Of a stretch of DNA of 64,000 nt, positions 14,047-46,644 are shown one piece after another. This stretch comes from an uncultured Chloroflexia bacterium. Lineage in GTDB: Bacteria > Chloroflexota > Limnocylindria > Limnocylindrales > CSP1-4. The translations under genes and the position numbers were made by a program. Location of the stretch: contig CAWEYL010000003.1 of the NCBI GenBank assembly GCA_963813335.1, positions 32,001 to 96,000 on the forward strand. The letters are read 5' to 3'. Numbering within the stretch: the stretch's first letter is position 1; each line of letters starts with the position of its first letter. Under the pieces are notes generated by a model that made no database searches, had not been told where the DNA came from, and saw only the letters and a program-made list of their open reading frames with translations.

Positions 14047-14895
14047 CTAGCCGCGGAGCAGCAGGTTCCAGGCGATCACGATGGCCCCGAGCACGGCCAG
14101 CAGCACGATCTGCCACAGCCAGGTGATGTCGCGGCGGCGCGCGGGCGAGGAGCCATGGACCGCATCCCACAGGTAGAAGGCAAGCGTGAGAAGCGCCGGG
14201 CCGATCAATCGCGGGATGGCCATCGCCCGGATGGCGGCAGCGCCGATCGCGATGGCGGCGGCATAGGTCAGCGCGGACCAGAAGGCGTCGCGCAGGTTGG
14301 TCAGCCGCAACGCCGCCGCCCGATATCCGAGCAGGAAGGCGATCACCGCGTCGCCCGCGGCCAGGATCAGGAGGCTGCCCTCCGGGATCGGCTTGGGGGT
14401 CGCGCCCGAGCCCACCGGTTGGGCGAGCCCGCCCGGGACGATCGCGGCGATCCCGGTGAAACCGATGAACGCCACGACCAGGATCGTGATGAGCACGGAG
14501 GTCCGGTCGGCGTCCGAGATCCCCTCGGGGGCGAGGTGGATCCGCGCCTCGAGCGCGAGCGAGCGCGAGACGAGGTACGCGGTGAGCAGCAGCGCCGGCG
14601 CCAGCCACAGGCCGAACGGGACCAGGCGGATCGCCCCGAGGCAGGCGACCGCGGACACCGAGGGCAGGATCAGCGACTCGATCGGCACGCCCGCCGCGGC
14701 CTCGGACGGCGGGAGCAGGTCCGCCAGCACCTGGAGCGTGCCGAACAGCATCGCGATCAGCAGCAGGACGGCGACCAGCCACAGTGCCGGCGGCTCGAGC
14801 AGGCGCGACAGCCCGACGATCGTCACCGCGGCGAGGGCCAGGTCGCGTCGGGCGTTCCGCTCGTCCATCGCCGGGATGGTACGCGAGGCGGTCAT
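14047..14895 (-). CDS. Multi-pass membrane protein (possibly DUF5656-like)
   Basis: About 9-10 hydrophobic segments; ATG overlaps the polX stop (ATGA). Confidence 0.75.
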   Translation of the reverse strand: MTASRTIPAMDERNARRDLALAAVTIVGLSRLLEPPALWLVAVLLLIAMLFGTLQVLADLLPPSEAAAGVPIESLILPSVSAVACLGAIRLVPFGLWLAPALLLTAYLVSRSLALEARIHLAPEGISDADRTSVLITILVVAFIGFTGIAAIVPGGLAQPVGSGATPKPIPEGSLLILAAGDAVIAFLLGYRAAALRLTNLRDAFWSALTYAAAIAIGAAAIRAMAIPRLIGPALLTLAFYLWDAVHGSSPARRRDITWLWQIVLLAVLGAIVIAWNLLLRG

Positions 14896-16714
14896 GTCCG
14901 CTCCGGCTTCGAGCCCGCCCAGGCGAGCAGCGCGGCGCGATCGCGGGTGTTCACGACGTTCGCGGGCTCGACCCAGGCCCGCCGCGCCTGGCTGATCCCC
15001 CAGCGCACGTAGTCCAGCTCGTCGGTGCGGTGCGCGTCGGAGTCGATCGAGAGGAGGCAGCCGTCGGCGACCGCGCGACGGGCGCGCTCGACGGCGAGGT
15101 CGAGTCGGTGCGGCGAGCCGTTCATCTCGAGCGCGGTCCCGGTCCGCGCGGCCTCGGCATAGACCTGGTCCCACTCGAGGTCGAGGTCGTCGCGGGTGTC
15201 GATCATCCGGCCGGCGGGGTGGGCGATGACGTCGACATGCGGGCTGCGGATCGCGGTGAGCGTCCGCCTGGTCAGCTCGGCCCGCGGCTGGCGCCGGGAG
15301 ACGTGCAGCGAGGCGACGACGAGGTCGAAGCCGGCAAGCAGGTCGTCCTCGTAGTCGAGGTCGCCATCGGCGCGGATCTCCAGCTCGCAGCCGTGGAGCA
15401 GCCGGAAGCCGCCGGGCGGGGTCTCGGGGGCGCGGTCCCGGCCGCCTCCTCGGCGGCGAACCGCGCGTTCAGCGCGGCGATGATCTCGCGCTGCTCGGCG
15501 ACGCGCTCGGGCGTGAGCCCGCGGGCGATCGCCAGCGACTGCGAGTGGTCGGTCAGCACCTGGTAGGCGTAGCCGCGCCGCCGGGCGGCCTCGGCCATGA
15601 CCTCGATGGCGTGCGTCCCGTCGGACCAGTCGGAGTGGCTGTGCAGGTCGCCGCGCAGGTCGGCCAGGGCGATCAGTGCCGGCAGCCGACCGGCCAGCGC
15701 GGCCTCGATCTCGCCGCCGTCCTCGCGCAGCTCGGGCTCGATGAAGGGCAGGCCCAGGAAGGCGTAGGCCTCGGGCTCGGTCGCGACCGTGCGCAGCTCC
15801 GCGGCGTCGCCGGTCAGCGGCGCGCCGTCCTCGCCGATGCGCAGGAAGCCCTTCTCCGAGAGGCTCCAGCCCTGGTCGCGGGCCATCGCCCGCAAGCGGA
15901 CGTTGTGCTCCTTGGAGCCGGTGAAGTGGACGAGATACGTGCCGGCCTCGCCGGGCGGCATGATCATCAGGTCCACCTGCGGGCCGCGCAGCAGCCGGAC
16001 CGCGGCCTTGTAGCCGCCCTGGTTCACGACATGGTCGACGACGCCGAGACCCGTGAACCGCCCGATCAGGCTCGCCGCGTCGTCGGTCTCGGCGAGCAGG
16101 TCGAGATCGCCGATCGATTCCTTGCGACGCCGGAACGAGCCGGCGGGCTCGAGGCGGCGGACGCCCGGCGTGCTGGCCAGGGCCGCGATCATGTCGTCGA
16201 CGTAGCCCTCGGCCTTGTCGAGCAGCATCCGGCCCGGGTTCGCGTCGAGCCGGGCGATGCCCTCGAGCACGAGCACCTCGGTCCTGGCCGACATGCCGCG
16301 CAGGCCGCGCAGGCGCCCGCCCTCGGCGGCCGCGCGCAGCTCGTCCATCGAGGCGATGCCCAGCTCCTCGTGGAGCTGGCGGACGGTCTTGGGGCCGAGG
16401 CCCGGGATGCGCAGCAGGTCGACCAGGCCGGGCGGGATCTCGGCCTTGAGCCGCTCGTGGTACGCGAGCCGCCCGGTCGTGGCCAGCTCGGCGACCTTGT
16501 CGCTGATCGCAGCGCCGACGCCCGGGATCCGCGGCGGCGTGCCGGAGCGGTAGGCCGCGACGAGGTCGACCGGGCTGCGCCCGATGGCGTCCGCGGCGCG
16601 GTGGTAGGCGACGGTCTTGAAGACGAGCTCGCCCTTGACCTCGAGCATGTCGCCGATCTCGTGGAAGATCCGGGCGAGGTCGCCGTTGGTCAGCTCGGCG
16701 GGGTCGTCGGTCAC
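14892..16714 (-). CDS. polX: DNA polymerase X / PHP 3'-5' exonuclease; apparent frameshift in the G run at ~15428
   Basis: HhH motifs IPGVG and IPGLGPK, GSFRRRKESIGDLDLL, HFTGSKEHN, PHP motifs DLHSHS, LTDHS, DSDAH. Confidence 0.93.
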
Positions 16715-16730
16715 GCCCCGATGGTAGCGG

Positions 16731-18134
16731 CTACGCGGCGACGACCCGGTTGCGGCCGGCCCGCTTCGCGCGGTAGAGCGCCCGGTCGGCCCGCTCGACG
16801 AGGTCGCCGATGGGCTCGTCCTCGTACTCGGCGACGGCGACGCCGACGGAGACCGTGACCGAGGGCAGGCGCAGCGCGGTCAGGTCGAGCCCCGCCACCG
16901 CGGCGCGGACGCGCTCGCCGACCTCGAGGGCGACCGCCGGACCCGGGTTGCGCAGCAGCACGACGAACTCCTCGCCGCCGTAGCGCGCCGGGACGTCATC
17001 GTCGCGGACCGCGCGGACGATGGACCCGCCGACCGCCCGCAACACCTCGTCCCCGACGCCGTGGCCGTGGCGGTCGTTGAGGGCCTTGAACCGGTCGATG
17101 TCGATCATCAGCACCCCGACCGCGTCCTCGGCCCGGCGACGGCGGGCCAGCAACGCGCAGAACTCGTCGAAGTAGCGGCGGTTGGGGAGCCCGGTCAGCG
17201 CGTCGGTCGAGGCGTGCAGCTCGGCGGTCCGCTGCGAGCCCGCCCGCGACATGGCGACGGACGCTTCCGCGGCGGCGCCCTGGAGCAGCCGCCTGGTGGC
17301 CTCGGGCCACGGCTCCGGCGAGCGGCGCGACAGCACGATCGCCCCGGCCATCCCGTCGCGGGCGATGAGCGGGACGGCGAGCGTGTTGCCGAGGCCATAG
17401 ACGCCGCGGACGCGGTCCGCTATCCGGTCCGCGATCGCCTGCGCGGTGAGGTCCGCGATCGTGGGTGCGGCGGCTGTCCGGGCGGGGCCGCGGTCGAGCC
17501 GCTGCGGGATGCCGCTGACCCTCGAAGCGAAGCCGCTCCAGCGGCTCCCGGCCCCCACCGGGACGCGGGCCTCCGCCCGGACGCCGGCCCGCTCGGGGAC
17601 GGCCGCCTCGACCTCGGCGACGATGGGGATCGCGACCGGCGTCCTGGCCCGGGTCGGGGCGTCCACCGGGTCGGACAGGTCCGAGATCGGGAGCAGGGTC
17701 GTCGACGGCGGCACACCCCGGCGGACGCTGATCAGCGTGGCCTGCAGGGCCCGCGCATCGGGGCGGCGCAGGGCGACCACCAGGTGGTCAGCGCCGCTTG
17801 CGGCGGCCAGCTCCTCGACGATGGCGCCGACGATCGCGTCCTCGGACACGGAGCGCGACAGCCCGGACATGATCCGCGCGAACGATTCGGCCTCGGCCCG
17901 ACGGCCCTGCTCGAGGGCGATGACGGCTTCGTGGTGGCGGAGCGCGGCCAGGCCGGCGATGGCGACGAGGCCCGCGACGATCCAGTCGAGGGGGCGGGCC
18001 TGCTCGGCGAGCAGCCGGAGGACGAGCAGGGATCCGAGGAGGGCGAACGTGCCGGCGAAGACCCACCAGGAGCGGCGGATCCGTCGGTCCGTCGTCGCTC
18101 CGTCACGACCTGGGCGCAGGTTCGGTTCGCTCAC
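16731..18134 (-). CDS. Membrane-anchored GAF-GGDEF diguanylate cyclase
   Basis: Two N-terminal TM helices, TDALTGLPNRR, DIDRFKALND, RDDD I-site and GGEEF. Confidence 0.92.
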   Translation of the reverse strand: MSEPNLRPGRDGATTDRRIRRSWWVFAGTFALLGSLLVLRLLAEQARPLDWIVAGLVAIAGLAALRHHEAVIALEQGRRAEAESFARIMSGLSRSVSEDAIVGAIVEELAAASGADHLVVALRRPDARALQATLISVRRGVPPSTTLLPISDLSDPVDAPTRARTPVAIPIVAEVEAAVPERAGVRAEARVPVGAGSRWSGFASRVSGIPQRLDRGPARTAAAPTIADLTAQAIADRIADRVRGVYGLGNTLAVPLIARDGMAGAIVLSRRSPEPWPEATRRLLQGAAAEASVAMSRAGSQRTAELHASTDALTGLPNRRYFDEFCALLARRRRAEDAVGVLMIDIDRFKALNDRHGHGVGDEVLRAVGGSIVRAVRDDDVPARYGGEEFVVLLRNPGPAVALEVGERVRAAVAGLDLTALRLPSVTVSVGVAVAEYEDEPIGDLVERADRALYRAKRAGRNRVVAA

Positions 18135-25868: not shown

Positions 25869-27061
25869 GCGTGCGTCTCCTGGCGGGCGGGCCCGGGCTC
25901 GCCGGGGACGACATCGTCGAGCGGGACGTCGACCGTGCCGGGCTGGGCCATGATGCGCGCGAGCGCGTCGGGGATCGGGTCCACCGAGTCCCAGTCGACC
26001 GGCGCCCGGATGACGAGGTCCGCCGGGTCGACGGCCGCGTCGCCGGCGATCCCGCGTGCCGGGTCGGCGGTCCATTCGATCGTCACCGCGCCGCTCGTGA
26101 AGCCGGCCCCGAAGGCCACGATCACGATCCGGTCGCCGACCTTGACCCGGCCCTCGTTGACCGCCTCGGCCAGGGCGATCGGCACGGACGCGGCCGACGT
26201 GTTCCCGTATTTGTGGAGGTTGACGAACATCTTCTCCATCGGCAGGTCCAGGCCCTTGGCCACCGCGTCGATGATGCGGATGTTGGCCTGGTGCGGGATG
26301 AACAGGTCGATGTCGGACGGCTGGAGGCCGGCCTTCCGGATCGACTCGAGCGCCGTGGACGCCAGCGTCCGCGTCGCGAACCGATAGGTCTCCTTGCCCT
26401 CCATCCGGATGTAGTGCTCGCCGCGGGCGATGGTGTCGGCCGAGGGCGGGCTCTTGGCGCCGCCGGCGGGCAGCCAGATCATGTAGGCGCCCTGCGGCTC
26501 GGTCGTCATCTCGATGCCGAGCCCGCCGCCCGGCTCGTCCGACGCGGACAGGACGACCGCCCCGGCCCCGTCGCCGAAGAGGATGCAGGTGTTGCGGTCC
26601 GTGTAGTCGAGGAAGCGGGTCAGCAGCTCGGCCCCGATGACCAGCACGTGCTTCGCCAGCCCGCTCGTGATGTAGGCGTGCGCGGTCGCGTACGCGTAGA
26701 CGAAGCCGGAGCATGCCGCGGCGACGTCCATCGCGGCGGCCTTCGTGTTGCCGATGGCCTCCTTGACCAGCGCCGCGGTCGAGGGCATCCAGTAGTCGGG
26801 CGTCAGCGTGGCGAGCAGGATCAGGTCGATGTCGTCCGGCTCGATGCCGGCCGTGCGGATCGCGCGCATCGACGCGACCGCGGCCATCGAGGCGGTCGTC
26901 TCGTGCGCGGCCGCGACCCGTCGCTCGCGGATCCCGGTGCGGGTGACGATCCACTCATCCGAGGTATCGACGATCCGCTCGAGGTCCTGGTTGGTGAGCA
27001 CCTGCGACGGGGCGTAGCGGCCCCAGCCGGTGACATGGGCGTAGCGCGCGACCTGACTCAC
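25865..27061 (-). CDS. fabH: 3-oxoacyl-ACP synthase III
   Basis: TSDEWIVTRTGIRERR, AACSGF, LFGDGAGA, PHQAN, YGNTSAAS. Confidence 0.96.
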   Translation of the reverse strand: MSQVARYAHVTGWGRYAPSQVLTNQDLERIVDTSDEWIVTRTGIRERRVAAAHETTASMAAVASMRAIRTAGIEPDDIDLILLATLTPDYWMPSTAALVKEAIGNTKAAAMDVAAACSGFVYAYATAHAYITSGLAKHVLVIGAELLTRFLDYTDRNTCILFGDGAGAVVLSASDEPGGGLGIEMTTEPQGAYMIWLPAGGAKSPPSADTIARGEHYIRMEGKETYRFATRTLASTALESIRKAGLQPSDIDLFIPHQANIRIIDAVAKGLDLPMEKMFVNLHKYGNTSAASVPIALAEAVNEGRVKVGDRIVIVAFGAGFTSGAVTIEWTADPARGIAGDAAVDPADLVIRAPVDWDSVDPIPDALARIMAQPGTVDVPLDDVVPGEPGPARQETHA

Positions 27062-27609
27062 AGCGGTTCCACCTCGACCAGTGGCTGCTTCGCCTTGACC
27101 AGTGTGCCGCTTTCGGGGATGACCTTGACCACGCGGCCGGCCAGGTCCGACTTGATCTCGTTGAACAGCTTCATCGCCTCGATCAGCCCCACCACCTGCC
27201 CGACCGCGATCTCGCCGCCGACGGTCACGTAGGGGGCCGAACCGGGCGCCGGCGAGCCGTAGAAGATGCCGGTCAGCGGCGCCTTGACCGATGGCTTCGA
27301 CGGTGCGCCCGGGTCGCGACCGGCCGCGGCCGGCTCGCCGGGACCGTGCCCGTCGGCGGAGGCCGCCACCGCGGCCGACGGCGGCGCCGGCTCCGCGACC
27401 GCGGTCGCGAACGCGGACGGCTTGCGCAGGACGAGCCCGGTCCCGCCCGACTCGACCTCGAGCTCGGTCAGGTCCGACCGGTCGAGGAGGTCCGCGAGCC
27501 GGTCGATGAGCGCCAGCAGCCCGGCGTCGCCGTCGTCGCGGACCGCGACCTCGGCCGGCGCCTCCGGCTCGGGGACGGCCCCGTCCGGGGCCTTCTCCTT
27601 GCCGGTCAT
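27058..27609 (-). CDS. accB: Acetyl-CoA carboxylase biotin carboxyl carrier protein
   Basis: SDLTELEVE N-terminal motif; APLTGIFY; intact IEAMKLFNEI biotinylation motif; ATG overlaps the fabF stop. Confidence 0.93.
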   Translation of the reverse strand: MTGKEKAPDGAVPEPEAPAEVAVRDDGDAGLLALIDRLADLLDRSDLTELEVESGGTGLVLRKPSAFATAVAEPAPPSAAVAASADGHGPGEPAAAGRDPGAPSKPSVKAPLTGIFYGSPAPGSAPYVTVGGEIAVGQVVGLIEAMKLFNEIKSDLAGRVVKVIPESGTLVKAKQPLVEVEPL

Positions 27610-28862
27610 GCGTCGAACCGGGTGAAGACGAGCGCCGTGTTCTGGCCGCCGAAGCCGAAGGAGTTGCTGATCGCCGTCCGGATCTCGCGCGACGCGGCGA
27701 CGTTCGGCGTCAGGTCCAGGCCGACGCTCTCCGGGTCCGGGTCGACGAGGTTGATGGTCGGCGGCACGCAGCCGGTCAGGATCGACTGGATCGTGACGAT
27801 CGCCTCGATCGCGCCCGCGGCCCCGAGGGTGTGCCCGAGCATCGACTTGTTCGCCGTGATCGCCACCCGGGACGCGCCGTCGCCGAAGATCGTGCGCATC
27901 GCCTGGAGCTCGGCCTTGTCGCCCTCCGGGGTCGAGGTGGCGTGGGCGTTGACGTGGTCGATGTCGGCCGGCTCGAGCCCGGCCTTGCCGAGCGCGATCC
28001 GGGCGGCGCGCACCGCACCGATGCCGCCCGGCGCCGGCAGCGTGATGTGCGAGGCGTCCGCCGTCGCGCCGTAGCCCACGAGCTCGGCATAGATGGTCGC
28101 CCCGCGCGCCTCGGCGTGCTCGAGGGCCTCGAGGATCACGACGCCGGACCCCTCGCCGATGACGAACCCGTCGCGTCCGGAATCGAACGGGCGCGAGGCG
28201 CCTTCCGGGTCGTCGTTCCGGGTCGACAGCGCGCGCATCGCCGCGAACCCGCCGACGAGCGGCTCGAAGATGCCGGCCTCGGTGCCGCCCGCGACCATGA
28301 CGTCGGCGTCGCCGCGGCGGATGATCTCCGACGATTCGCCGAGGGCGTGGCCGCCCGAGGCACAGGCCGAGACCGTCGTGAAGTTCGGGCCGGTCATCCC
28401 GAACGAGATCGCGATCTGGCCGGCACCGATGTTGGGGATGCCCATCGGGACGAGGAACGGGCTGATGCGGTCCGGACCGCGCAAGGCGTTCGTGGAGATG
28501 CCCTCGACGAGCGTCCCGACGCCGCCCAGCCCGGTGGCGAGGATCACCCCGGTCCGCTCGGCGAGCTCGCCCTCGAACCGCGCCGGGAGCCCCGCCTGGT
28601 CGAGCGCCTCGCGGGCGGCCACGAGCCCGAACTGGATGTAGCGGTCGGTCCGCCGGATGTCCTTCCTGTCGAGGATGTGCGACGCGTCGAAGTCGCGGAC
28701 CTCGGCGGCGATCCGCGAGGTCAGCCGCGACGGGTCCCAGGCCTCGATGGTGCGCACGCCGGACCGGCCGGCGACGAGGCCCGCCCAGGTCGTCGCCACG
28801 TCGTTGCCGAGGGCCGTCACGGCCCCCATCCCGGTCACGACCACGCGCCGCCGCTCGCTCAT
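27606..28862 (-). CDS. fabF: 3-oxoacyl-ACP synthase II
   Basis: RRVVVTGMG, SACASG, NAHATST, KSMLGHTLGAAG, SNSFGFGGQN. Confidence 0.96.
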   Translation of the reverse strand: MSERRRVVVTGMGAVTALGNDVATTWAGLVAGRSGVRTIEAWDPSRLTSRIAAEVRDFDASHILDRKDIRRTDRYIQFGLVAAREALDQAGLPARFEGELAERTGVILATGLGGVGTLVEGISTNALRGPDRISPFLVPMGIPNIGAGQIAISFGMTGPNFTTVSACASGGHALGESSEIIRRGDADVMVAGGTEAGIFEPLVGGFAAMRALSTRNDDPEGASRPFDSGRDGFVIGEGSGVVILEALEHAEARGATIYAELVGYGATADASHITLPAPGGIGAVRAARIALGKAGLEPADIDHVNAHATSTPEGDKAELQAMRTIFGDGASRVAITANKSMLGHTLGAAGAIEAIVTIQSILTGCVPPTINLVDPDPESVGLDLTPNVAASREIRTAISNSFGFGGQNTALVFTRFDA

Positions 28863-29605
28863 CGCACGAGCTTGCCGGTGCGGACCGTGGCCGCGCGATA
28901 GACGTCGCCGGGGAGGCCGCGTGCCGAGATCGCGTTGGCGACCGAGAGCGCGTCGAACTCGGTCCGCTTGATCTCCGCCTCGACGTTGCCGTCGACCAGG
29001 TCGACCAGCGCCCAGGACGCCGTCGGGTCGCCATCGAAGACGTAGCCCGCCGACCCGGCGTTCACGATGATCTTCCAGCCCAGGTCGCGCACCTCGGGGA
29101 GGTGGGTGTGGCCGCAGGCGATGACCCGCGCGTCGGTCCGCGACACCCGCTCGAGGATGACGTTGGGGTCGAGCGCCTGGTCGAAGCCCGCGGTCTGCGA
29201 CCCGGGGGACGCGTGGCAGGCGAGGATCAGCGTGTCGTCGGTCGAGCGCGCCCGGCGCTCGTTCGGGAGGCGGCGCAGCCAGGCCAGCCGCTCGTCGCCG
29301 AGCGCGTCGTTGGCCCATTCGGCCGCGGCGAGGTACGTCTCGGGGACGCCGTCGGTCATCCACGGGAACGCCGCGGCGTAGTCGAAGTCGGCGACCGCGA
29401 CGTCCGTGTTCCCGGCGACCACCATCGCGCCGTCGGACTCCATCGTCCGCAGCAGGTCGATCACGCCGGCCGGGTCCGGTCCGTTGTAGACGAGGTCGCC
29501 GGCGACCGCGACGAGGTCCGGCCGGCTCGCGTGGACCGCCTTGCGGACGGCCTCGAGCGCCGGGAGGTTGCCGTGGATGTCGGAGATGATCGCGAGCCGG
29601 GTCAT
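28859..29605 (-). CDS. Calcineurin-like metallophosphoesterase (YfcE-like)
   Basis: SDIHGN, GDLV, GNTD, CHASP, CGHTH, NAGSAG motifs; start and stop overlap fabZ and fabF. Confidence 0.9.
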   Translation of the reverse strand: MTRLAIISDIHGNLPALEAVRKAVHASRPDLVAVAGDLVYNGPDPAGVIDLLRTMESDGAMVVAGNTDVAVADFDYAAAFPWMTDGVPETYLAAAEWANDALGDERLAWLRRLPNERRARSTDDTLILACHASPGSQTAGFDQALDPNVILERVSRTDARVIACGHTHLPEVRDLGWKIIVNAGSAGYVFDGDPTASWALVDLVDGNVEAEIKRTEFDALSVANAISARGLPGDVYRAATVRTGKLVR

Positions 29606-30148: not shown

Positions 30149-31520
30149 TCACGTACGGGCGGCGGCGGTCAGGAAGGCGGCGCTCCCGATGCGGTCGAGC
30201 AGGTTCGTCGTGAACCGCCCGTCCAGGAAGACCTCGTTGGCCAGCAGGGCGCGCTGGATCGCGACGTTCGTGACGAGGCCGTCGATGACGAGCTCCTCGA
30301 GGGCCACCCGCCCGCGGGCGATGGCCGTCGCCCGGTCCGGGCCCCAGACGACCAGCTTGCCGAGGAGCGAGTCGTAGAACGGCGGGACTTCGTAGCCGGT
30401 GTACAGGTGCGAGTCCATCCGGACCCCGGGCCCGCCGGGCGCGTGGTAGCGCTCGACGATGCCGGCACCCGGGCGGAAGTCCGCCTCGGGATCCTCGGCG
30501 TTGATGCGGAACTCGATGACGTGGCCGCTGAACGCGACGTCCGCCTGGCTGAACCCGAGCGGCTCCCCGGCCGCGATGCGGATCTGGGTCGTCAGGAGGT
30601 CGATCCCGGTCAGCATCTCGGTGACCGGGTGCTCGACCTGGACGCGGCAGTTGATCTCGATGAAGTAGAAGCCGCCCGCGCTGTCCACCAGGAACTCGAG
30701 CGTCCCGACGTTCTCGTAGCCGGCCGCCACGACCGCCCGGAGGGCCCGCTCGGCGAGGTCCGCGCGAGCCGCCTCGGACAGCGCCGGCGTCGGCGCCTCC
30801 TCGAGGATCTTCTGGTGGCGGCGCTGGACGGAGCAGTCGCGCTCGCCGAGGTGGACGCCGTGGCCGTAGCGGTCGACCGCGACCTGGACCTCGACGTGGC
30901 GGTTCTCGTCGAGCCACTTCTCGAGGTAGAGCGAGTCGTCGCCGAAGGCCGCCTTCGCCTCGGAGCGGCAGACCTTGAGCACCGATTCGAGCTCGCGGGC
31001 CGTGCGCACCATGCGCATCCCCTTGCCGCCACCGCCCGCCGACGGCTTGATGAGGACCGGGTAACCGAGCCGCTCCGCCTCCGCGAGGGCGTGGGTCTCA
31101 TCGCGGAGCATGCCGTCGGAGCCCGGGATCGTCGGCAGGCCGTGCGCGCCCAGCAGCCGGCGGGTCGCCTCCTTGCTGGCGAACCGCTCGAGGACCGGGC
31201 CGGGCGGGCCGATGAAGGTGATGCCGTGGGCCGCGACGACGTCGGCGAAGCCCTCGTCCTCGGACAGGAAGCCGTAGCCCGGGTGGATGCCGTCGCAGCC
31301 GGTCACCAATGCGGCCGAGATGACCGCCGGCGCCGACAGGTACGAGCGCTTGGCGTCGGCCGGGCCGATGCAGATCGCCTCGTCGGCGAGCTGGACCGGC
31401 AGCGAGTCGCGGTCCGCCTCGCTGTAGGCCACGACCGCCTCGACACCGAGCGTCCGGCACGCCGCGCAGGATGCGCAGGGCGATCTCGCCGCGGTTGGCG
31501 ATGAGGATCTTGCGGAACAT
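30149..31520 (-). CDS. accC: Biotin carboxylase; apparent frameshift at ~31462
   Basis: MFRKILIANRGEIALRI joins to HPGYGFLSE, GGGGKGMR, ERDCSVQRRHQK, RVQVEHPVTE. Confidence 0.95.
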
Positions 31521-31523
31521 CGG

Positions 31524-32091
31524 TCAGGCGTCCCCGCCCGGGGCCGCGGCCGTGACGAGCTCGATGACGATCAGCTCCTGGCCGTATTCGACCGCGTCGC
31601 CGGGCTCGACGAGGCTCGCCCCGACCAGGCCGTCGACCGGGGTCACGACCTCCTGGGCGACCCCGAGCATGTCGACGATGCCGAGCCGGTCGCCGGCGCG
31701 GACCTTGGTCCCGGCACGGACCCCCGTCCGCGGCTGGAAGATGCCGACCGCCGGCGAGGTCGCGACGGAGCGGCGCGGGTCCGCACCGTCACGCCCATCA
31801 CGGCCGTCCCGGCCGGGGCCGACCGGCGTCAGCGTGGCGACCGCCGGATGGCTCGCGTGCGCTGACGATCCGCGGCTCGACCGCTCCGAGGAGCGCTTGC
31901 CGGCAGGGGTGGCCGGGCGGCGCAGGCGGACCTTCCAGTCGCCCTCGCGGACCTCGAGCTCGCCGAGGCCGGTCGCCGCGAGCTTGGCGATCAGCGCCGG
32001 CAGCAGCTCGTCGCGCGAGGCGATCGATGGCGGCGTGGTCCTCGGCCCGCTGGGACGAGGCGTCGGCGTCCTGGGGTGGCGTTCCGGGCAC
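31524..32091 (-). CDS. BCCP-like protein lacking the biotinylated lysine (BADC-like); apparent frameshift at ~32015
   Basis: AccB-like GLGELEVREGDWKVRLRR and biotinyl-domain SPAVGIF...GDAVEYGQEL, but IVDMLGV replaces IEAMKL. Confidence 0.85.
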
Positions 32092-32094
32092 TCG

Positions 32095-34051
32095 CTAGAC
32101 CTCCTCACGGGCCGGCGGGTCGTCGCGCGACCACGGCGTGACGGTGGCGCCGATGGCTCGCCGGCCCGGGTCCAGCAGGTCCCGCAGGCGATCCCCGAGG
32201 CCGCGATCGACCTTTTCGGGGAGCTCCGGCACGTCGGCCTCAGTGTAGGCGCCGAGCGACCGATAGCGTCGGTAGCGTGCGTCGAGCAGCTCGTCGATGG
32301 TGAGCGCCTCGAGCGCCTCGAGCCGGTCGAGGATGATCGCGCGCAGGCGCTTGGCGGTCTCGGCCGGGTCGGTGTGGGCGCCCTCCCCCGGCTCCGCGAC
32401 GACGAGGTCGAGGACGCCGAGGTCGTGTTGGTCGGCGGCGGTCATGCGCATCGCGGCGGCCGCCGTGTGCGCTTCGTCCTGGGTCCGCCACAGGATCGAC
32501 GCGCAGCCTTCCGGGCTGATGACCGAGTAGACCGCGTTCTCGAGGGCGATGACGACGTCGCCCACGGCGATCGCCAGCGCGCCGCCGGAGCCGCCCTCGC
32601 CGGTGATGACCGTGACGATCGGGGTCCGCAGCCGGGTCATCAGCGCGACCGACCGGGCGATCGCCTCGGCGATGCCGCGCTCCTCGGATTCGGGGCCGGG
32701 GTGGGCGCCCGGGACGTCGACGAAGGTGATGACCGGCAGGCCGAAGCGCTCCGCCAGTTCCATGACGCGCATGGCCTTGCGGTAGCCCTCCGGGTGCGGC
32801 ATCCCGAAGTTGCGCCGGATGTTCTCGTCGGTGTCGGTGCCCTTCTGCTGGCCGATGACCGCGACCGACCGGCCATCGAGCCGGGCGATCCCGGCGACCA
32901 TCGCCTCGTCGTCGCCGAACAGGCGATCCCCGTGCAGCTCGACGAACCCGTCGGTCATCGCCTCCACGAACTCGAGCGTCCGCGGCCGGCGCAGGTTGCG
33001 GGCGAGCTGGACCCGCGCCCAGGCGTCGTCGGCGCTGTGGCTGCTCCCGTTCGTCGGCGTGCCGTTGGTCGGCGCGCCGTTGCCCCCGACGAGGATGGCG
33101 GGATCGGTCGGGGCGTCGCCGGCCGCGAACTCGCCGACCCGGTCGGCCAGCGTCGAGAGGAACGAGAGCGGCCGGAAGCCGGGCAGGTCCGAGCTGGCGG
33201 GGACCGCCGCGGACGCCCCGTTCCGGACGGGCAGGAGGCGCAGGATCGCCGCCAGCTCGTCGCGCAACGCGGGGCGGGGCACGACGCGGTCGATGAAGCC
33301 GTGGCGGTACAGGAACTCCGCGCGCTGGAACCCCTCGGGCAGCTCCTGGGCGATGGTCCCGGCCTGCACCCGGGCGCCGGCGAAGCCGATCAGGGCGTTC
33401 GGCTCGGCCACGTTGACGTCGCCGACCGCGGCGAACGAGGCGAACACGCCGCCGGTCGTCGGGTCCGACAGGACCGACACGAACGGGACGCCGGCCGGGT
33501 GCAGCCGCTCGATGGCTGCCAGGGTCTTGGCGAGCTGCATCAGCGCAAGCGTGCCCTCCTGCATCCGGGCCCCACCCGACGCGCTCACGATCAGGAGCGG
33601 GATCCGCGCCTCGAGGGCGTGCTCCGCGGCCCGCGTGACCTTCTCGCCCACGACCGCCCCCATGGAGCCGCCCATGAACCCGAAGTCCATGACGCAGATC
33701 GCGACGGGGATCTCGGCGATGGCGCCGGTGCCCCACAGGGCGGCGTCGCGCATGCCGGTCGAGGCCTGTGCGGCCGCGAGCCGGTCGACATAGCTCTTGC
33801 GGTCCACGAAGCGCAGCGCGTCGACGGACTGCAGGCCGGCGTCGTGCTCGACCCAGCGTCTCGTGGTCGAGGAGCTGCTCGAGCCGGGTGGCGGCGGAGA
33901 GCCGGAAATGGTGGCCGCAGGTCGGGCAGACCCGCATCGCCTTGTCGAGCTGCTTGTTGAACAGCATCGTTTCGCACGACGGGCACTTCGTCCACAGGTC
34001 GGGCGGGTAGGCGTCGCGCCGGGCGCGGAACGACGGCAGCTTGATCGGCAT
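32095..34051 (-). CDS. accD/accA: Fused acetyl-CoA carboxyltransferase beta-alpha (AccD-AccA); apparent frameshift at ~33857
   Basis: LWTKCPSC...CPTC zinc finger, FMGGSMG and GGARMQEG (AccD), continuing in frame into NFGMPHPEGYRKA, GEGGSGGALA, YSVISPEGCASILW (AccA). Confidence 0.93.
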
Positions 34052-34566
34052 CAGTCCAGCCGCCCCCGGGCGACCGCGCGGACGGCCCGGGCCATCGGGG
34101 TCGCGGCGGGCCGGCGCAACCGCCAGGCGACCCACGCCGCGCCGGCGAGCGACAGCGCCGCGGAGGTGAGGGCGCCGCCGATGATGAGCGGGCGCAGGTC
34201 CGCCTCGGGGTCGTCGTCGAGCGGGAGGCCGTCCACGTAGGCCGCGAGCGCCGCGGCGTCGGCGTCGGCCGCCGGCAGGCGCATCGACACGACCGACCCC
34301 TCGCCACCGGCCGCGACCGGCAGGCGTCGAGCGAGGGCGGCCGCCGACAGCCGGGCGGCGAGCGCCTCCTCGAAGCGGAACGACGGATGCAGCCGCGGCA
34401 GGTCCCGGGCGAGCCGGTCGGCCACGGCGCGGACGCGCGGGTCGAGCTCCGCGGGGGCAGGCGCCAGGTCGGCCCCGGTCCCGTGGGCCGTGAGCAGCGA
34501 TTCGAGGTAGCGGTCCGCGATGAGCGCCTCGATCTCCGTCGCGTCGCGGCCGCCGGGCAGGGTCAC
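34051..34566 (-). CDS. Hypothetical protein with one C-terminal TM helix, putative anti-sigma factor
   Basis: GTG overlaps the sigma stop; PSFRFEEALAARL motif; hydrophobic C-terminus; stop overlaps the accD ATG. Confidence 0.65.
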   Translation of the reverse strand: MTLPGGRDATEIEALIADRYLESLLTAHGTGADLAPAPAELDPRVRAVADRLARDLPRLHPSFRFEEALAARLSAAALARRLPVAAGGEGSVVSMRLPAADADAAALAAYVDGLPLDDDPEADLRPLIIGGALTSAALSLAGAAWVAWRLRRPAATPMARAVRAVARGRLD

Positions 34567-35193
34567 CCGCGGTCCTCGCCCAGGTCGCGGGCCACGTTGC
34601 GCAGTGCCCGGTGGATGAGCACCCGGACCGATCCCTCGGAGCGGCCCATGATCCCGGCGATCTCGGCGGTGGACATCTCGTCGACGAAGCGCAGCACGAC
34701 CGCGCGGCGGCGGTCGCCGCTCAGGCGGCTGATCGGCGCGGAGGGCGGCCCGGCCCTCGTCGCGGCGGGCGGCATCGGCCTCGAGGTCGAGCGGCGCGGC
34801 GAGGTCGGCGACCGTGTCGAGGGTCGTCTCGGGGCGACGACGGCGCCGGCGGCGGCGCTCGGCGACCACGTTGCGGGCGATGTGGAACAGCCAGACCTTG
34901 AAGGTCGAGGCGCCCTCCCCGTCGGCCGGCCGGGCGCGCTCCTCGAAGCGCGGCAGGTTGGCGAGCGCCGCCAGGAACGTCCGTTCCGTGGCGTCCTCGG
35001 CCTCGTGCCGATCCCCGAGCTCGTAGAACGCGTAGTTGTACACCTGGGCGAGGTACTTCCGGTAGAGGGCGTCGAAGCGCGCCGGGTCGGCCTGCGCCGC
35101 GTCCACGAGCGGGCGATCCCGATCGAGGTGGACGAGGCGCGGACCACCGGTCTCCTCCGACCGGTCCACCTTCCTGAATGCCGGACGCGCCAT
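34563..35193 (-). CDS. ECF sigma-70 factor; apparent frameshift at ~34735
   Basis: Region 2 FDALYRKY...AEDATERTF...FKVWLFHIARN; region 4 AVVLRF...AEIAGIMGRSEGSVRVLIHRAL. Confidence 0.9.
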
Positions 35194-35197
35194 CGCG

Positions 35198-36005
35198 TTA
35201 CACCCCGACCGTCGGCGCGAGGCGCGCGTGGCGGATCTCCCCGACCAGGACAGGGCGCGATCCGTCGGCCGTGGCGGCGTCCTCGACCAGCAGCGCGCCC
35301 GTGCCGGACTCGACGCCGAGCGCCCGGACGAGCTCGCTCGTGCCGTCGGGGCGGACCAGCTCCACGATCCGGCCGGTCGTCGACTGGCGGTCCGCCCAGC
35401 CCGCCTTGTCGAAGCGGTCGGCGCGGAGCGCCTCGACGCGCGCCTCGAGTCGGACGACGAAGGCGTCGGCCAGCGTCTCGCGGTCGACCGGCCGGCCGCC
35501 CGTGGTCTCGCGCAGCGACGTCATCGAATCGGCGAGCGCGGGCGGGAAGGTCGCGGCGGGCCAGTCGGCGTTGATCCCGAGCCCGACCACGGCCCGCGGC
35601 TCGTCCGTGCCGAGCCCGTCGGTCTCGCCGAGGACGCCGGCCAACTTGCGGACGCGCCCCTCGGTGTCCTCCACGACGAGGTCGTTCGGCCACTTCAGGC
35701 GGATCGTGCCATCGGGCAACCCCGCGACGGCTTCCGCGGCATCGGCCATCGCAAGTGAGGCTGTCGCGGCCAGCCGCCAGACCTGGTCCGGGGGCAGCCA
35801 GTCGGGCCGGAACCCGAGCGAGAGCAGCAGTGCGGCGCCGGGCGGCGCGACCCAGGTCCGGCCCTCGCGGCCGCGGCCGGCGGACTGCGAATCCGCGATC
35901 GCCAGGCAGACCTCGGGCGTGCCGTCGGCCAGCCAGCGCGCGCACGACGTCGTTGGTCGAGGCGACCTCGGCGAACCGCTTGGAGCGGGCCAGGAACGCC
36001 GTCAT
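35198..36005 (-). CDS. birA: Biotin--protein ligase without HTH; apparent frameshift at ~35937
   Basis: VASTND, QSAGRGR, LKWPNDL, KLAGVLGE, GLGIN motifs. Confidence 0.92.
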
Positions 36006-36018
36006 GCGCGGTCGTCCA

Positions 36019-37274
36019 TCAGCCCGCGGCGGCGACATCGACCGGCTCGGGTCGCTCGAGCTCGAAGGCGTCGTGCAGCGCCCGCAGCGCGGTCTCGAGC
36101 TCGGCCTCGGCCACGATGCAGGTGATCCGCACCTCCGAGGTCGAGATCATCTCGATGTTGACGCCCGCGTCGGCGAGCGTCCCGAACATCCGGGCGGCAT
36201 AGCCCGGCGCGTTGTGGAGCCCGGCGCCGACGATCGAGACCTTGCCGACGGATGCATCGGTGGTGAGCTCGCGGGCCCCCATCTCGCGGACGAGCGGCTC
36301 GAGGACCTTCTTCGCCCGGGCCAGCTCGACGCGCGGGACGGTGAAGGACATGTCTGTCGCGCCGCCGTGGCCGACGTTCTGGACGATCATGTCGACGTTC
36401 ACGCCGGCCTCGGCCAGCGGCTCGAAGATCGACCGCGCGACGCCCGGCCGGTCCGGGACGTCGACGATGGTGACCTTGGCGACGTTCCGGTCGTGGGCGA
36501 GCCCGCGAACCTTGTTGCGCTGCTCCACGAGCGGGTCCTCCCTGATGCGCGTGCCGGGGGCGTCCTCGAACGAGCTGAGGACCTCGATGACGACGTCGTT
36601 GACCCAGCCCAGCTCCACGGCGCGGACCTGCATGACCTGGGCGCCCTGGTGGGCGAGCTCGAGCATCTCCTCGTAGCCGATGACCGGCAGCTGGCGGGCC
36701 TTCGGCACGAGGCGGGGATCGGCGGTGTAGATGCCGTGGACGTCGGTGAAGATCTGGCAGCGCTCGGCGCGCAGGGCGGCGGCGAGGGCCACCGCGGTCG
36801 TGTCGCTGCCGCCGCGGCCGAGGGTCGTGATCTCGTCGGCGGCAGCTGCTCTGGCCCTGGAACCCGGCCACGATCACGACCTTGCCGGCCTCCAGCTCCT
36901 CGCGGACGCGGCGCGGCTCGATGCCCGCGATCCGTGCCCGGCCGTAGCGGCCGTCGGTGGTGATGCCGGCCTGCGGCCCGGTCAGGCTGATGGCCGGGAG
37001 TCCCGAGCCCGTGGAGCGCCATCGACAGCAGCGTCGCCGCCTGGTGCTCGCCGGTCGCGAGCAGCACGTCGAGCTCGCGCGGGTCGGGGTCGTCGGTGAT
37101 GGCTGCGGCCAGGCCGAGCAGCTCGTCGGTCGCGTCGCCCATCGCCGAGACCACGACGACGAGGTCGTTGCCGGCCGCGCGCTCGCGCGCGATCCGGCGC
37201 GCCACCCGCTTGATGCGGTCGGCGTCGGCCACGGAGGAGCCGCCGTACTTCTGGACGACGAGGGGGGCAGGCAT
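36019..37274 (-). CDS. lysC: Aspartate kinase with ACT domains; apparent frameshifts at ~37000 and ~36845
   Basis: [46 protein letters not shown], two ACT domains. Confidence 0.93.
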
Positions 37275-37372
37275 CGCGGGGCATTCTACCGCCCGGGTCG
37301 CCGTGCTCCCGCCATTCGGCCGGCCGCGGGCTACGATGGCCCGGCCCGTCCCCGCTCAGAGGTGTCCCCGCG

Positions 37373-44016: not shown

Positions 44017-44024
<8 letters not shown>
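42927..44024 (-). CDS. thrC: Threonine synthase
   Basis: [41 protein letters not shown]. Confidence 0.95.
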
Positions 44025-45129
<1,105 letters not shown>

Positions 45130-45329
45130 CGGGGCGGCGCTCAACGGTGGGCTCGGCGGGGGCGGGACATCGGGGTCGATGGTAGCGGACGGCGTGACGC
45201 GGCCGGGCGCTCCGGGCGGTCGTGGTGGTGCGGGAGCACCCCGGTTCAGCGGCGGACGCCCGACCGGCGCGACCCGGTTCCTGTGCCGGACGCCACCGTG
45301 TCGCCGCCGGCCGCCGCACACCGGCATAC

Positions 45330-45506
45330 GGCACAACGCTCGCCCACAGATCGTTATGGCCGATGGCCGGCCGGATCCACGCGATCTCGACGCCGACAGC
45401 CGGGAGCGCGAGCGTGGATCGGCGGGGATCTTCCGAGATCGGGCTCCGTCGGGCACCCAGTCGAGCCCCGGACCGGCCATAACGTTCTGTCCATGGTCGT
45501 TGTGCC
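45330..45506. repeat. Dispersed intergenic element copy C (177 bp, 36-bp imperfect terminal inverted repeats)
   Basis: Left arm 45330-45365 GGCACAACGCTCGCCCACAGATCGTTATGGCCGATG; right arm 45471-45506 reverse complement GGCACAACGACCATGGACAGAACGTTATGGCCGGTC. Confidence 0.88.
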
Positions 45507-45524
45507 AGGTTTGTCGGGGTAGGC

Positions 45525-45564
45525 CCCGCGGCGCAGCGGCCCGCGGCGCAGCGGCCCGCGGCGC
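45525..45564. repeat. Short tandem repeat, 15-bp unit CCCGCGGCGCAGCGG x ~2.7
   Basis: Read directly from the hom-trpS intergenic sequence. Confidence 0.7.
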
Positions 45565-45624
45565 GGCCACGCCGACGGCGTGACGCGGCCGAGCGGCCCG
45601 GGCGGTCCGCTACACTCGCCGACG

Positions 45625-46644
45625 ATGACGACCGAAGCCGTCCCCGCACCGGCCCCTGCCGCCGACGCCGCCGTCCGACCGCGGATCTTCAGCGGGATCC
45701 AGCCGTCGGGCGCGCCTCATCTCGGCAACGACCTGGGTGCGATCCGCAACTACGTCCGGCTCCAGGCCGAGTACGACACGATCTACTGCATCGTCGACTA
45801 CCACGCCCTGACCAGCCTCCACGACCCCGACGCGCTGCGGGCGCGGACCCGCGAGATGGCCGCCGCCCTGGTGGCCCTGGGCCTCGACCCGGACCGCTGC
45901 ATCCTCTTCGTGCAGAGCCACCGGCCCGAGCACACCGAGCTGGCCTGGCTGCTGATGACGGTCACCCCGGTCAGCTGGCTCGAGCGGACGCCGACGTACA
46001 AGGAGAAGAAGGAGAACCAGCCCGACGACATCAACCACGGGCTGCTCACCTACCCGGTCCTGCAGGCCGCGGACATCGTCATCTACAAGGCCTCGCTGGT
46101 CCCCGTCGGCAAGGACCAGGCCGCCCACCTGGAGCTGTCGCGCGAGATCGTCCGGCGCTTCAACTCCATCTACGGCGAGACATTCCCGGAGCCGCAGGCG
46201 GTCCACACCGAGGTGCCCATCGTGCTCGGCACCGACGGCGTCCGGAAGATGAGCAAGTCGCTCGGGAACACCATCGACATCCTGGCCGAGCCCGAGGTCA
46301 TCCGCCGCCAGGTCATGAGCATGGTCACCGACACGCAGCGCATCCTGCGGACCGACCCGGGCCGCCCGGAGGTCTGCAACGTGTGCCAGCTCCACCGCTT
46401 CTTCGGGGCCGACTACGAGACGATCTGGGACGGCGAGCGGACCGCCCGGACCGGCTGCGTCGACACCAAGAAGCTGCTCGCGGAGCGCATCATCGCCCAC
46501 TACGCCGAGGCGCGAGCGCGTTTTGCCGAGCTGATGGCCGACCCGGCGCGGATCGACCGGATCCTCGCGGACGGCGCGGAGCGCGCCAGGCCGCTGGCCG
46601 AGGCCACGATGGCCGAAGTCCGCGAGCGGATGGGGCTTCGCTAG
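45625..46644 (+). CDS. trpS: Tryptophan--tRNA ligase
   Basis: FSGIQPSG..HLGN, YPVLQAADI, VPVGKDQ, KMSKS. Confidence 0.96.
   Translation: MTTEAVPAPAPAADAAVRPRIFSGIQPSGAPHLGNDLGAIRNYVRLQAEYDTIYCIVDYHALTSLHDPDALRARTREMAAALVALGLDPDRCILFVQSHRPEHTELAWLLMTVTPVSWLERTPTYKEKKENQPDDINHGLLTYPVLQAADIVIYKASLVPVGKDQAAHLELSREIVRRFNSIYGETFPEPQAVHTEVPIVLGTDGVRKMSKSLGNTIDILAEPEVIRRQVMSMVTDTQRILRTDPGRPEVCNVCQLHRFFGADYETIWDGERTARTGCVDTKKLLAERIIAHYAEARARFAELMADPARIDRILADGAERARPLAEATMAEVRERMGLR

Follow-up and report, generated by a model that had tools for sequence, protein, structure and literature searches.

Homologues of the biotin carboxyl carrier protein (BCCP) of acetyl-CoA carboxylase (ACC) that possess neither the AMKL motif nor the biotinylated loop are known from plants and algae as BADC proteins, with about 25-30% identity to BCCP (PMC11926652, PMC12706156, PMC13585458, PMC12873504, PMC11889953). 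According to the excerpts of these reports available to us, to which all our statements on BADC are confined, the BADCs bind biotin carboxylase (BC), coexist with a true BCCP and are non-catalytic; Arabidopsis possesses BADC1-3, and Chlamydomonas a single BADC-like protein (PMC11926652, PMC12706156, PMC13585458). They are seen either as inhibitors or as a 'glue' of the BC-BCCP subcomplex, and their role is still argued (PMC11926652, PMC12706156, PMC13585458). BADC has been proposed to cap the thumb side of BCCP (PMC11926652), and the algal protein was reported to be stoichiometric with the carboxyltransferase (CT) subunits (PMC13585458). In one abstract the phrase 'unique to the plant htACCase' is applied to BADC (PMC11926652), and lysine-less BCCP paralogues are treated as a plastid speciality in the plant literature; here we describe one from bacteria that is fixed throughout a lineage and embedded in its acc operon.

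For the bacterial enzyme, one docking site is of interest here. E. coli BCCP binds helix 64-73 of BC in the 4HR7 structure (10.64898/2025.12.30.697075); the work on the E. coli ACC filament, in which BCCP is parked, regards this site as non-catalytic and shared with the N-terminus of AccD (10.1101/2024.05.28.596234). For the same filament, AlphaFold3 modelling of diffuse central density led to the proposal that BCCP oligomerises through an alpha/beta/beta motif formed by its first ~30 residues and that parked BCCPs thereby tether mobile ones (10.1101/2024.05.28.596234). A lysine-less carrier is described neither in a paper on the ACC of Chloroflexus (PMC11077971) nor in the excerpted text of a paper on the mycobacterial LCC complex (10.1101/2025.10.28.685139), and the 'AccB-like' protein of Chlamydia is biotinylated. 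Our literature searches turned up no lysine-less BCCP from a bacterium, an earlier mention within the BADC papers being possible.

The window, i.e., the whole stretch of 64,000 nucleotides of DNA that was analysed, encodes on its minus strand (31524-32091) a 188-aa BCCP-like protein with DMLG instead of EAMKL. The original prediction had placed an AccB-like protein between accD-accA and accC, and this is where we found the gene, with a fused accD-accA upstream and accC downstream. The gene order in the window is accDA, the lysine-less gene, accC, fabZ, a gene for a YfcE-like phosphoesterase, fabF, accB, fabH, and fabG. The features of the lysine-less gene and of its acc neighbours are as follows.

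27058..27609, minus strand: canonical accB with EAMKL and thumb, between fabF and fabH
30149..31520, minus strand: accC, biotin carboxylase; ATG at 31520, 3 nt past the stop of the lysine-less gene
31524..32091, minus strand: gene of the lysine-less BCCP paralogue; start GTG at 32091, stop TGA at 31526-31524; 188 aa when read across one extra base
31554..31772, minus strand: pseudo-biotinyl domain, barrel-sandwich fold without thumb; pLDDT 95-98 (AF2)
31662..31673, minus strand: hairpin tip DMLG; Gly codon 31664-31662 at the position of the biotinyl-Lys of EAMKL
31773..31919, minus strand: linker, disordered, fast-evolving, rich in Arg/Gly/Asp; pLDDT 43-57
31920..32012, minus strand: N-terminal helix plus beta-hairpin domain (DELLPALIAKLAATGLGELEVREGDWKVRLRR), counterpart of the AccB N-terminal domain
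32012..32016, minus strand: gcgcg run with one base more than P0003, hence a shift of frame (comparison with P0003)
32095..34051, minus strand: fused accD-accA with Zn-ribbon N-terminus; stop TAG at 32097-32095, 3 nt ahead of the lysine-less start
32100..32106, minus strand: GAGGAGG, Shine-Dalgarno-like, 8 nt upstream of the GTG, within the 3' end of accDA

BLASTP reproduced the gap-free alignment that had been claimed between GDRLGIVDMLGVAQEV of the lysine-less protein and GQVVGLIEAMKLFNEI of the true AccB encoded at 27058-27609; the alignment of the two window proteins comprises 188 columns with 27% identity (E 1e-8). The replacement of the biotinyl-Lys by Gly (DMLG, 31673-31662) can be read directly from the DNA, as had been stated. 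The protein matches the Pfam Biotin_lipoyl family with 22.6 bits (cut-off 22.1). It also matches TIGR00531, the BCCP model of NCBIfam, almost end to end (positions 8-155 of 156), with a score of 49.2 bits that lies under the cut-off of 115.2; the true AccB of the window scores 106 bits on the same model.

The coordinates given for the gene proved correct in one respect and incomplete in another. Its start at GTG 32091 agrees with P0003, a 188-aa protein from a public collection with 99% identity to the window protein that begins at the equivalent codon; the ORF found with translation table 11 (31524-32108) has a wrong N-terminus. However, the stretch 31524-32091 measures 568 nt, one base above a whole number of codons, so that the window copy is frameshifted: where P0003 reads ...DRLADELLPAL..., the window carries a 1-nt insertion near 32013. 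This insertion is probably an assembly error, because neighbouring genes, several of them essential, are broken in the same manner. Comparison with the intact orthologues of two related loci (L001 and L003) showed that genes nearby in the window lose their frame at six more places, listed here.

15428 and 45.1-45.7 kb: frame breaks in two further genes
~31462, minus strand: frame break in accC
~33857, minus strand: frame break in accDA
~36864 and ~37003: two frame breaks in an aspartokinase-like gene

The stretches 14895-16789, 30149-37277, and 44020-45749 of the window are affected by such breaks, the assembly looks prone to indels, and its ORF calls need care. Similar frame breaks are present in related loci (e.g., L035, L041, and L053). 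In one homologue with 77% identity (P0015), the linker resembles an alternative frame of the linker of its relatives and the sequence is later back in frame, reflecting either compensating indel errors or a tolerance of the linker for frameshifts. In addition, many very long overlapping ORFs run along both strands of the window between 23592 and 39886; these are by-products of the high G+C content and not genes, e.g., an 829-aa ORF on the plus strand (31471-33960).

Judged by the window copy, the gene might be taken for a decaying accB duplicate or a sequencing artefact, given the frameshift near 32013 and a Pfam score that barely exceeds its cut-off. Its relatives do not bear this out. A word-indexed search returned 3162 proteins at E <= 0.001, of which 120 were listed, down to 56% identity; all of these 120 best listed homologues carry D[MV]LG with Gly at the position of the Lys. 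Searched exhaustively and without a profile, 1.84 billion representatives yielded 1269 clusters at E <= 0.001, 245 of them at <= 1e-10, and each of the 150 listed representative clusters of these 1269 has Gly in the Lys column (preceded by Leu in 149 of 150). The family can be described by the signature GDxLGxVD[VMLC]LG[VI]xQ[ED]VxxPxDG. When we scanned for loci, with one genome per species, 54 Chloroflexota loci were recovered, of which 14 are labelled at NCBI as Candidatus Limnocylindria or Limnocylindrales and 14 as Chloroflexota without a class; the remaining 26 carry the labels of uncultured metagenome-assembled genomes ('uncultured Chloroflexia' in 21 cases, 'uncultured Anaerolineaceae' in 5). 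A further 26 loci kept in the scan encode ordinary AccBs, which come from Burkholderiales, other Proteobacteria, and Lachnospirales. Gly occupies the Lys position in all 54 Chloroflexota loci, most of which encode an intact lysine-less ORF, and wherever the locus was sufficiently long (46 of 46) a second gene with EAMKL, the true AccB, lies about 4.5 kb downstream between fabF and fabH. The orthologues thus do not keep MK, and the view that the change is no sequencing error is borne out by the 120 listed homologues, the 150 listed clusters, and the 54 loci alike.

In a tree built from bacterial sequences only, the lysine-less proteins form one clade (48 rows, SH-aLRT 99) and the AccBs of the same lineage another (39 rows, support 99); with 137 columns, this tree recovered no sister pairing among the lysine-less proteins, the AccBs of the lineage, and the other AccB groups. 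An Atlas look-up returned Chloroflexota 'hypothetical protein' clusters only. The family is restricted to a single lineage of soil and freshwater Chloroflexota. JGI and some NCBI records call its members 'acetyl-CoA carboxylase biotin carboxyl carrier protein', so that a carrier name has been given to proteins that, by their motif, cannot carry biotin.

We estimated dN/dS separately for the parts of the gene. Pooled over the two closest genome pairs, the values were 0.08 for the N-terminal domain, 0.10 for the C-terminal domain, and 0.54 for the linker of the lysine-less gene, compared with 0.09, 0.07, and 0.43 for the same parts of accB and 0.07 for the whole of accC; these low values rest on two pairs, and wider pair sets gave 0.32-0.42 for the folded domains, figures that are inflated by saturated dS and that are similar for AccB (0.22-0.40). 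Whole-gene ratios over all locus pairs (0.56 for the lysine-less gene, 0.43 for accB, 0.25 for accC) were discarded as uninformative because dS is saturated in these GC-rich genes; moreover, the linker dominates them. The domain values indicate that the folded domains are under purifying selection, like those of AccB. Relaxed selection had been named as an outcome that would speak against the prediction, and in the closest pairs, with about 0.1 for the folded domains, we saw no sign of it. A pseudogene or an artefact is a reading that we consequently rejected on the strength of the intact orthologues, the signature motif that is present in 150 of 150 listed clusters, and the low dN/dS of the folded domains; not only accC and accDA but also three or more other genes of the window have frame breaks, which points to the assembly as the source of the frameshift, and we give a pseudogene or an artefact hardly any credence.

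The architecture of AccB, namely an N-terminal domain, a linker, and a barrel-sandwich C-terminal domain, is present in the lysine-less protein. The AF2 model of its N-terminal domain comprises a helix (32-46) and two strands (50-55 and 58-63), and the Gly of the pseudo-biotinyl domain is located at the tip of the hairpin between strands 141-147 and 150-155. The best PDB match of the C-terminal domain found with Foldseek was 1bdo, the biotinyl domain of E. coli BCCP (E 1.3e-6, rmsd 1.8 A, TM 0.82 when normalised to the target), and the BCCP chains of 4hr7 are also among the best PDB matches; the family profile aligns with full-length E. coli BCCP (4hr7_B), including the N-terminal domain, at E 2.8e-19. 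Three features of AccB are missing: the protein stays under the TIGR00531 cut-off, it has no biotinyl-Lys, and its thumb is lost. Between the conserved Gly residues that flank the thumb, 46 of 48 lysine-less proteins have 10 residues and two have 8, compared with 16 residues in each of the 64 AccBs in the comparison; the deletion amounts to 6 residues and is visible as a gap in the alignment with E. coli BCCP. Judged from its sequence, the lysine-less protein is unable to take up biotin at the usual place in the hairpin.

The gene is firmly embedded in its neighbourhood. Up to the ends of their contigs, the 54 loci have this gene order in common, save for the insertion of fabD and the absence of the phosphoesterase gene in ten of them. 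Conserved synteny had been proposed as a check, and the position on the accDA side is kept throughout. The original prediction also had the gene hold the place before accC that accB normally takes; this is so in most loci, but in 10 of the 54, all of them divergent, fabD lies between the lysine-less gene and accC. Since fabD intervenes there, the constant neighbour is accDA and not accC. In this subclade (L042, L043, L046-L052, and L068; e.g., fabD at L047:10420-11385), fabD overlaps the stop of the lysine-less gene by 4 nt, and the lysine-less proteins are shorter (154-161 aa) with the hairpin VE[MV]LGVRH. The YfcE-like metallophosphoesterase gene (window 28859-29605, minus strand) is located between fabZ and fabF in 39 of 54 loci; it is missing from the fabD subclade, and the other loci without it end before that point. 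A fused accD-accA gene (about 644 aa, with a Zn ribbon at the N-terminus) exists in the window, and also in each of the 51 related loci with a contig that covers it. The intact accDA orthologue of L001 (644 aa; L001:8066-10000) scores above both the accD and the accA cut-offs, and the accC orthologue of L001 reaches 646.5 bits on PRK08591.

In the window, the gaps on either side of the lysine-less gene are both 3 nt. Of 50 loci, 43 have -4 to +3 nt between the stop of accDA and the lysine-less start; of 38 loci, 32 have -1 to +4 nt between the lysine-less stop and the start of accC. Most of the loci outside these ranges contain frame breaks or genes with uncertain starts. This spacing points to translation that is coupled to accDA and accC, i.e., to synthesis in a fixed proportion to carboxyltransferase and biotin carboxylase. 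Such coupling bears on the idea that the protein is a competitive negative regulator, a dead carrier that would occupy the BCCP sites on biotin carboxylase and lower the flux to malonyl-CoA. Its likeness to BCCP would suit it for this role, and excerpts of the plant literature tell us that BADCs were first described in this way (PMC12706156, PMC13585458). However, the coupling to its two neighbours, seen in most loci, ties the dose of the protein to that of the enzyme, so that regulation by amount has little scope, and we saw no presence/absence variation of the kind expected of a regulator among the 54 loci.

A complex prediction with AccC had been suggested as a further check. We modelled AccC together with the lysine-less protein, both from the intact locus L001, with separate alignments. 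The pair obtained an ipSAE of 0.78, the best of three controls 0.01; since a complex like that of 4HR7 has already been solved, this pass may reflect the memory of the model and shows likeness, not binding. Of 157 solved complexes, 116 reach the ipSAE mark, as do 2 of 215 mismatched pairs, counts that are rough when own alignments are used. The prediction runs share at least 62% of their contacts, and the pLDDT of the partner is at least 62. On AccC, residues 1-443 of which align to residues 1-442 of E. coli BC, the predicted contacts are residues 34, 49-53, 59, 64-73, and 98. The partner contributes residues 119-122 (AVG of the invariant PAVG, plus one), 146-147 and 149 of the hairpin, and 171 and 173-176 (AVEYGQ). 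The pseudo-biotinyl domain is thus predicted to dock at AccC helix 64-73, the non-catalytic site of E. coli BCCP in PDB 4HR7. These contacts include the best-conserved residues of the family: conservation of at least 90% is seen at nine of the 12 contact residues and at 13 of the 58 remaining residues of the domain (Fisher p 0.0009).

Predicted binding to AccC is what a competing dead carrier would show as well; yet the site in question is the non-catalytic one, which fits poorly with competition. The coincidence of the strongly conserved C-domain surface with the predicted AccC contact also weighs against a different idea, that the protein functions outside the catalysis and assembly of ACC, either in autoregulation of the operon through its N-terminal domain or as a partner of another biotin enzyme. 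The N-terminal domain of E. coli AccB is implicated in accBC autoregulation, which lends this idea some plausibility, as does the fact that the N-terminal domain of the lysine-less protein is conserved as well as its C-terminal domain. On the other hand, Pfam and NCBIfam searches revealed no DNA-binding domain in the protein, and its position between accDA and accC, considered invariant with fabD intervening in 10 of 54 loci, ties it to the ACC genes. We therefore regard a function outside ACC as quite improbable.

We compared the predicted contact positions between the lysine-less protein and the AccB of the same lineage. Outside the hairpin, they read as follows.

Position 120: V in the lysine-less protein; T in the AccB of the lineage (39 of 39)
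Position 171: A in the lysine-less protein; L in the AccB of the lineage
Position 173: E in the lysine-less protein; K in the AccB of the lineage
Position 174: Y in the lysine-less protein; A in the AccB of the lineage
Position 175: G in the lysine-less protein; K in the AccB of the lineage
Position 176: Q in both proteins

E. coli BCCP has V..VEF at the equivalent positions. Seven of the nine non-hairpin contacts of the lysine-less protein match the other AccBs, compared with two of nine in the AccB of the lineage, and for the three hairpin contacts the pattern is reversed, with none and three matches, respectively. These 'other' AccBs are 25 rows that had been fetched with the pattern G[EDQ][AG]VEYG[QE]x[LI], so that their agreement at positions 171-176 exists by construction; position 120 and E. 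coli BCCP are the only parts of the comparison that are independent of the pattern. At least 599 stretches matched the pattern, and because 568 of them encode relatives, a VEYG-type motif is at least common among canonical AccBs. The true AccB of the lineage (window; L001-L053) reads LVKAKQPL, versus PVEFDEPL in E. coli and AVEYGQPL in many AccBs; in addition, it has Thr for Val in the xPxVG strand, at a predicted BC-contact position.

If the AccB of the lineage has lost the residues used at the predicted site, a lysine-less protein bound there would have nothing to compete with. For this reason, and for those named above, we hold a competitive negative regulator to be unlikely, though less so than a function outside ACC. 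The complementary pattern instead evokes a split by complementary loss, in which two paralogues divide the jobs of one E. coli BCCP, parking on BC and swinging of carboxybiotin. The lysine-less copy would have kept the parking surface and the N-terminal tether and lost the Lys and the thumb. Conversely, Lys and thumb would persist in the true AccB, and its parking residues would be gone. That such a division created an independent bacterial BADC-like subunit is a proposal that we make tentatively, and one that we would sooner doubt than assume. A sharing of tasks between the two paralogues is nevertheless an attractive extension of the broader reading to which we now turn, and the residue comparison has put it to a partial test.

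The comparison of the loci gives good support to a BCCP paralogue that is conserved, linked to ACC, and not open to biotinylation; that it is a subunit of ACC is what we infer with the aid of the modelled complex. The interpretation towards which we lean, with modest confidence, is that of a stoichiometric subunit of ACC without a catalytic role, which serves to anchor or assemble the complex and represents a bacterial analogue of BADC, probably a convergent one. The pseudo-biotinyl domain would stay bound throughout to helix 64-73 of biotin carboxylase, the docking site away from catalysis, and the N-terminal domain might, as pure conjecture, co-oligomerise with that of the true AccB. The lysine-less protein could thereby anchor or assemble the BC-BCCP-CT complex, and the true AccB, its parking residues lost, would shuttle carboxybiotin, a mode of action that may be likened to the 'glue' model of plant BADC. 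An anchoring or assembling function is the most economical reading because the protein is kept, apparently co-translated with CT and BC, and constrained at the surface that corresponds to the BCCP parking site; coupling to accDA and accC together with the kept AccC-contact residues suggests a stoichiometric subunit of this type rather than a dose-dependent inhibitor. The original prediction had left the choice between an assembly and a regulatory subunit of ACC open: its general claim agrees with the conserved lysine-less paralogue, the synteny, the selection, and the prediction with AccC, and regulation by dose is the part that is less consistent with our data.

If this interpretation is true, a subunit of this kind arose more than once and the composition of bacterial ACC is not uniform. 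The locus would also offer a four-gene recombinant system with which the effect of a dead carrier on BC-CT assembly and catalysis can be tested. Should the split between the two paralogues apply as well, it would provide a simple, operon-encoded system to settle in vitro the dispute over glue and inhibitor.

In its three-part architecture, its fold, and its predicted BC docking site, the lysine-less protein resembles canonical AccB (E. coli; 1BDO, 4HR7), from which it differs by D[VMLC]LG in place of EAMK, by the deletion of 6 thumb residues, and by a score of 49 bits against a TIGR00531 cut-off of 115. To our knowledge, the AccE/epsilon subunits of Actinobacteria are not BCCP paralogues. The lysine-less protein would nonetheless be like them an accessory, non-catalytic component of biotin carboxylase complexes; AccE is listed in the composition of the M. 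smegmatis LCC complex in the part of the report available to us (10.1101/2025.10.28.685139).

With regard to function, the closest known proteins would be the BADCs of plants and algae. Like these, the lysine-less protein is a BCCP homologue without the biotinylation motif that is found alongside a true BCCP, and the stoichiometry with CT in the excerpted algal report fits the operon coupling seen here. Unlike BADC, which in the text available to us is proposed to cap BCCP on its thumb side (PMC11926652), the lysine-less protein is placed by our model on BC helix 64-73. Furthermore, its family is bacterial, resides inside an acc/fab operon, and belongs to one Chloroflexota lineage; descent from BCCP is common to both. 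Since the family sits in one lineage and forms a single clade, convergence is the more likely course, and the lysine-less protein probably originated independently of BADC.
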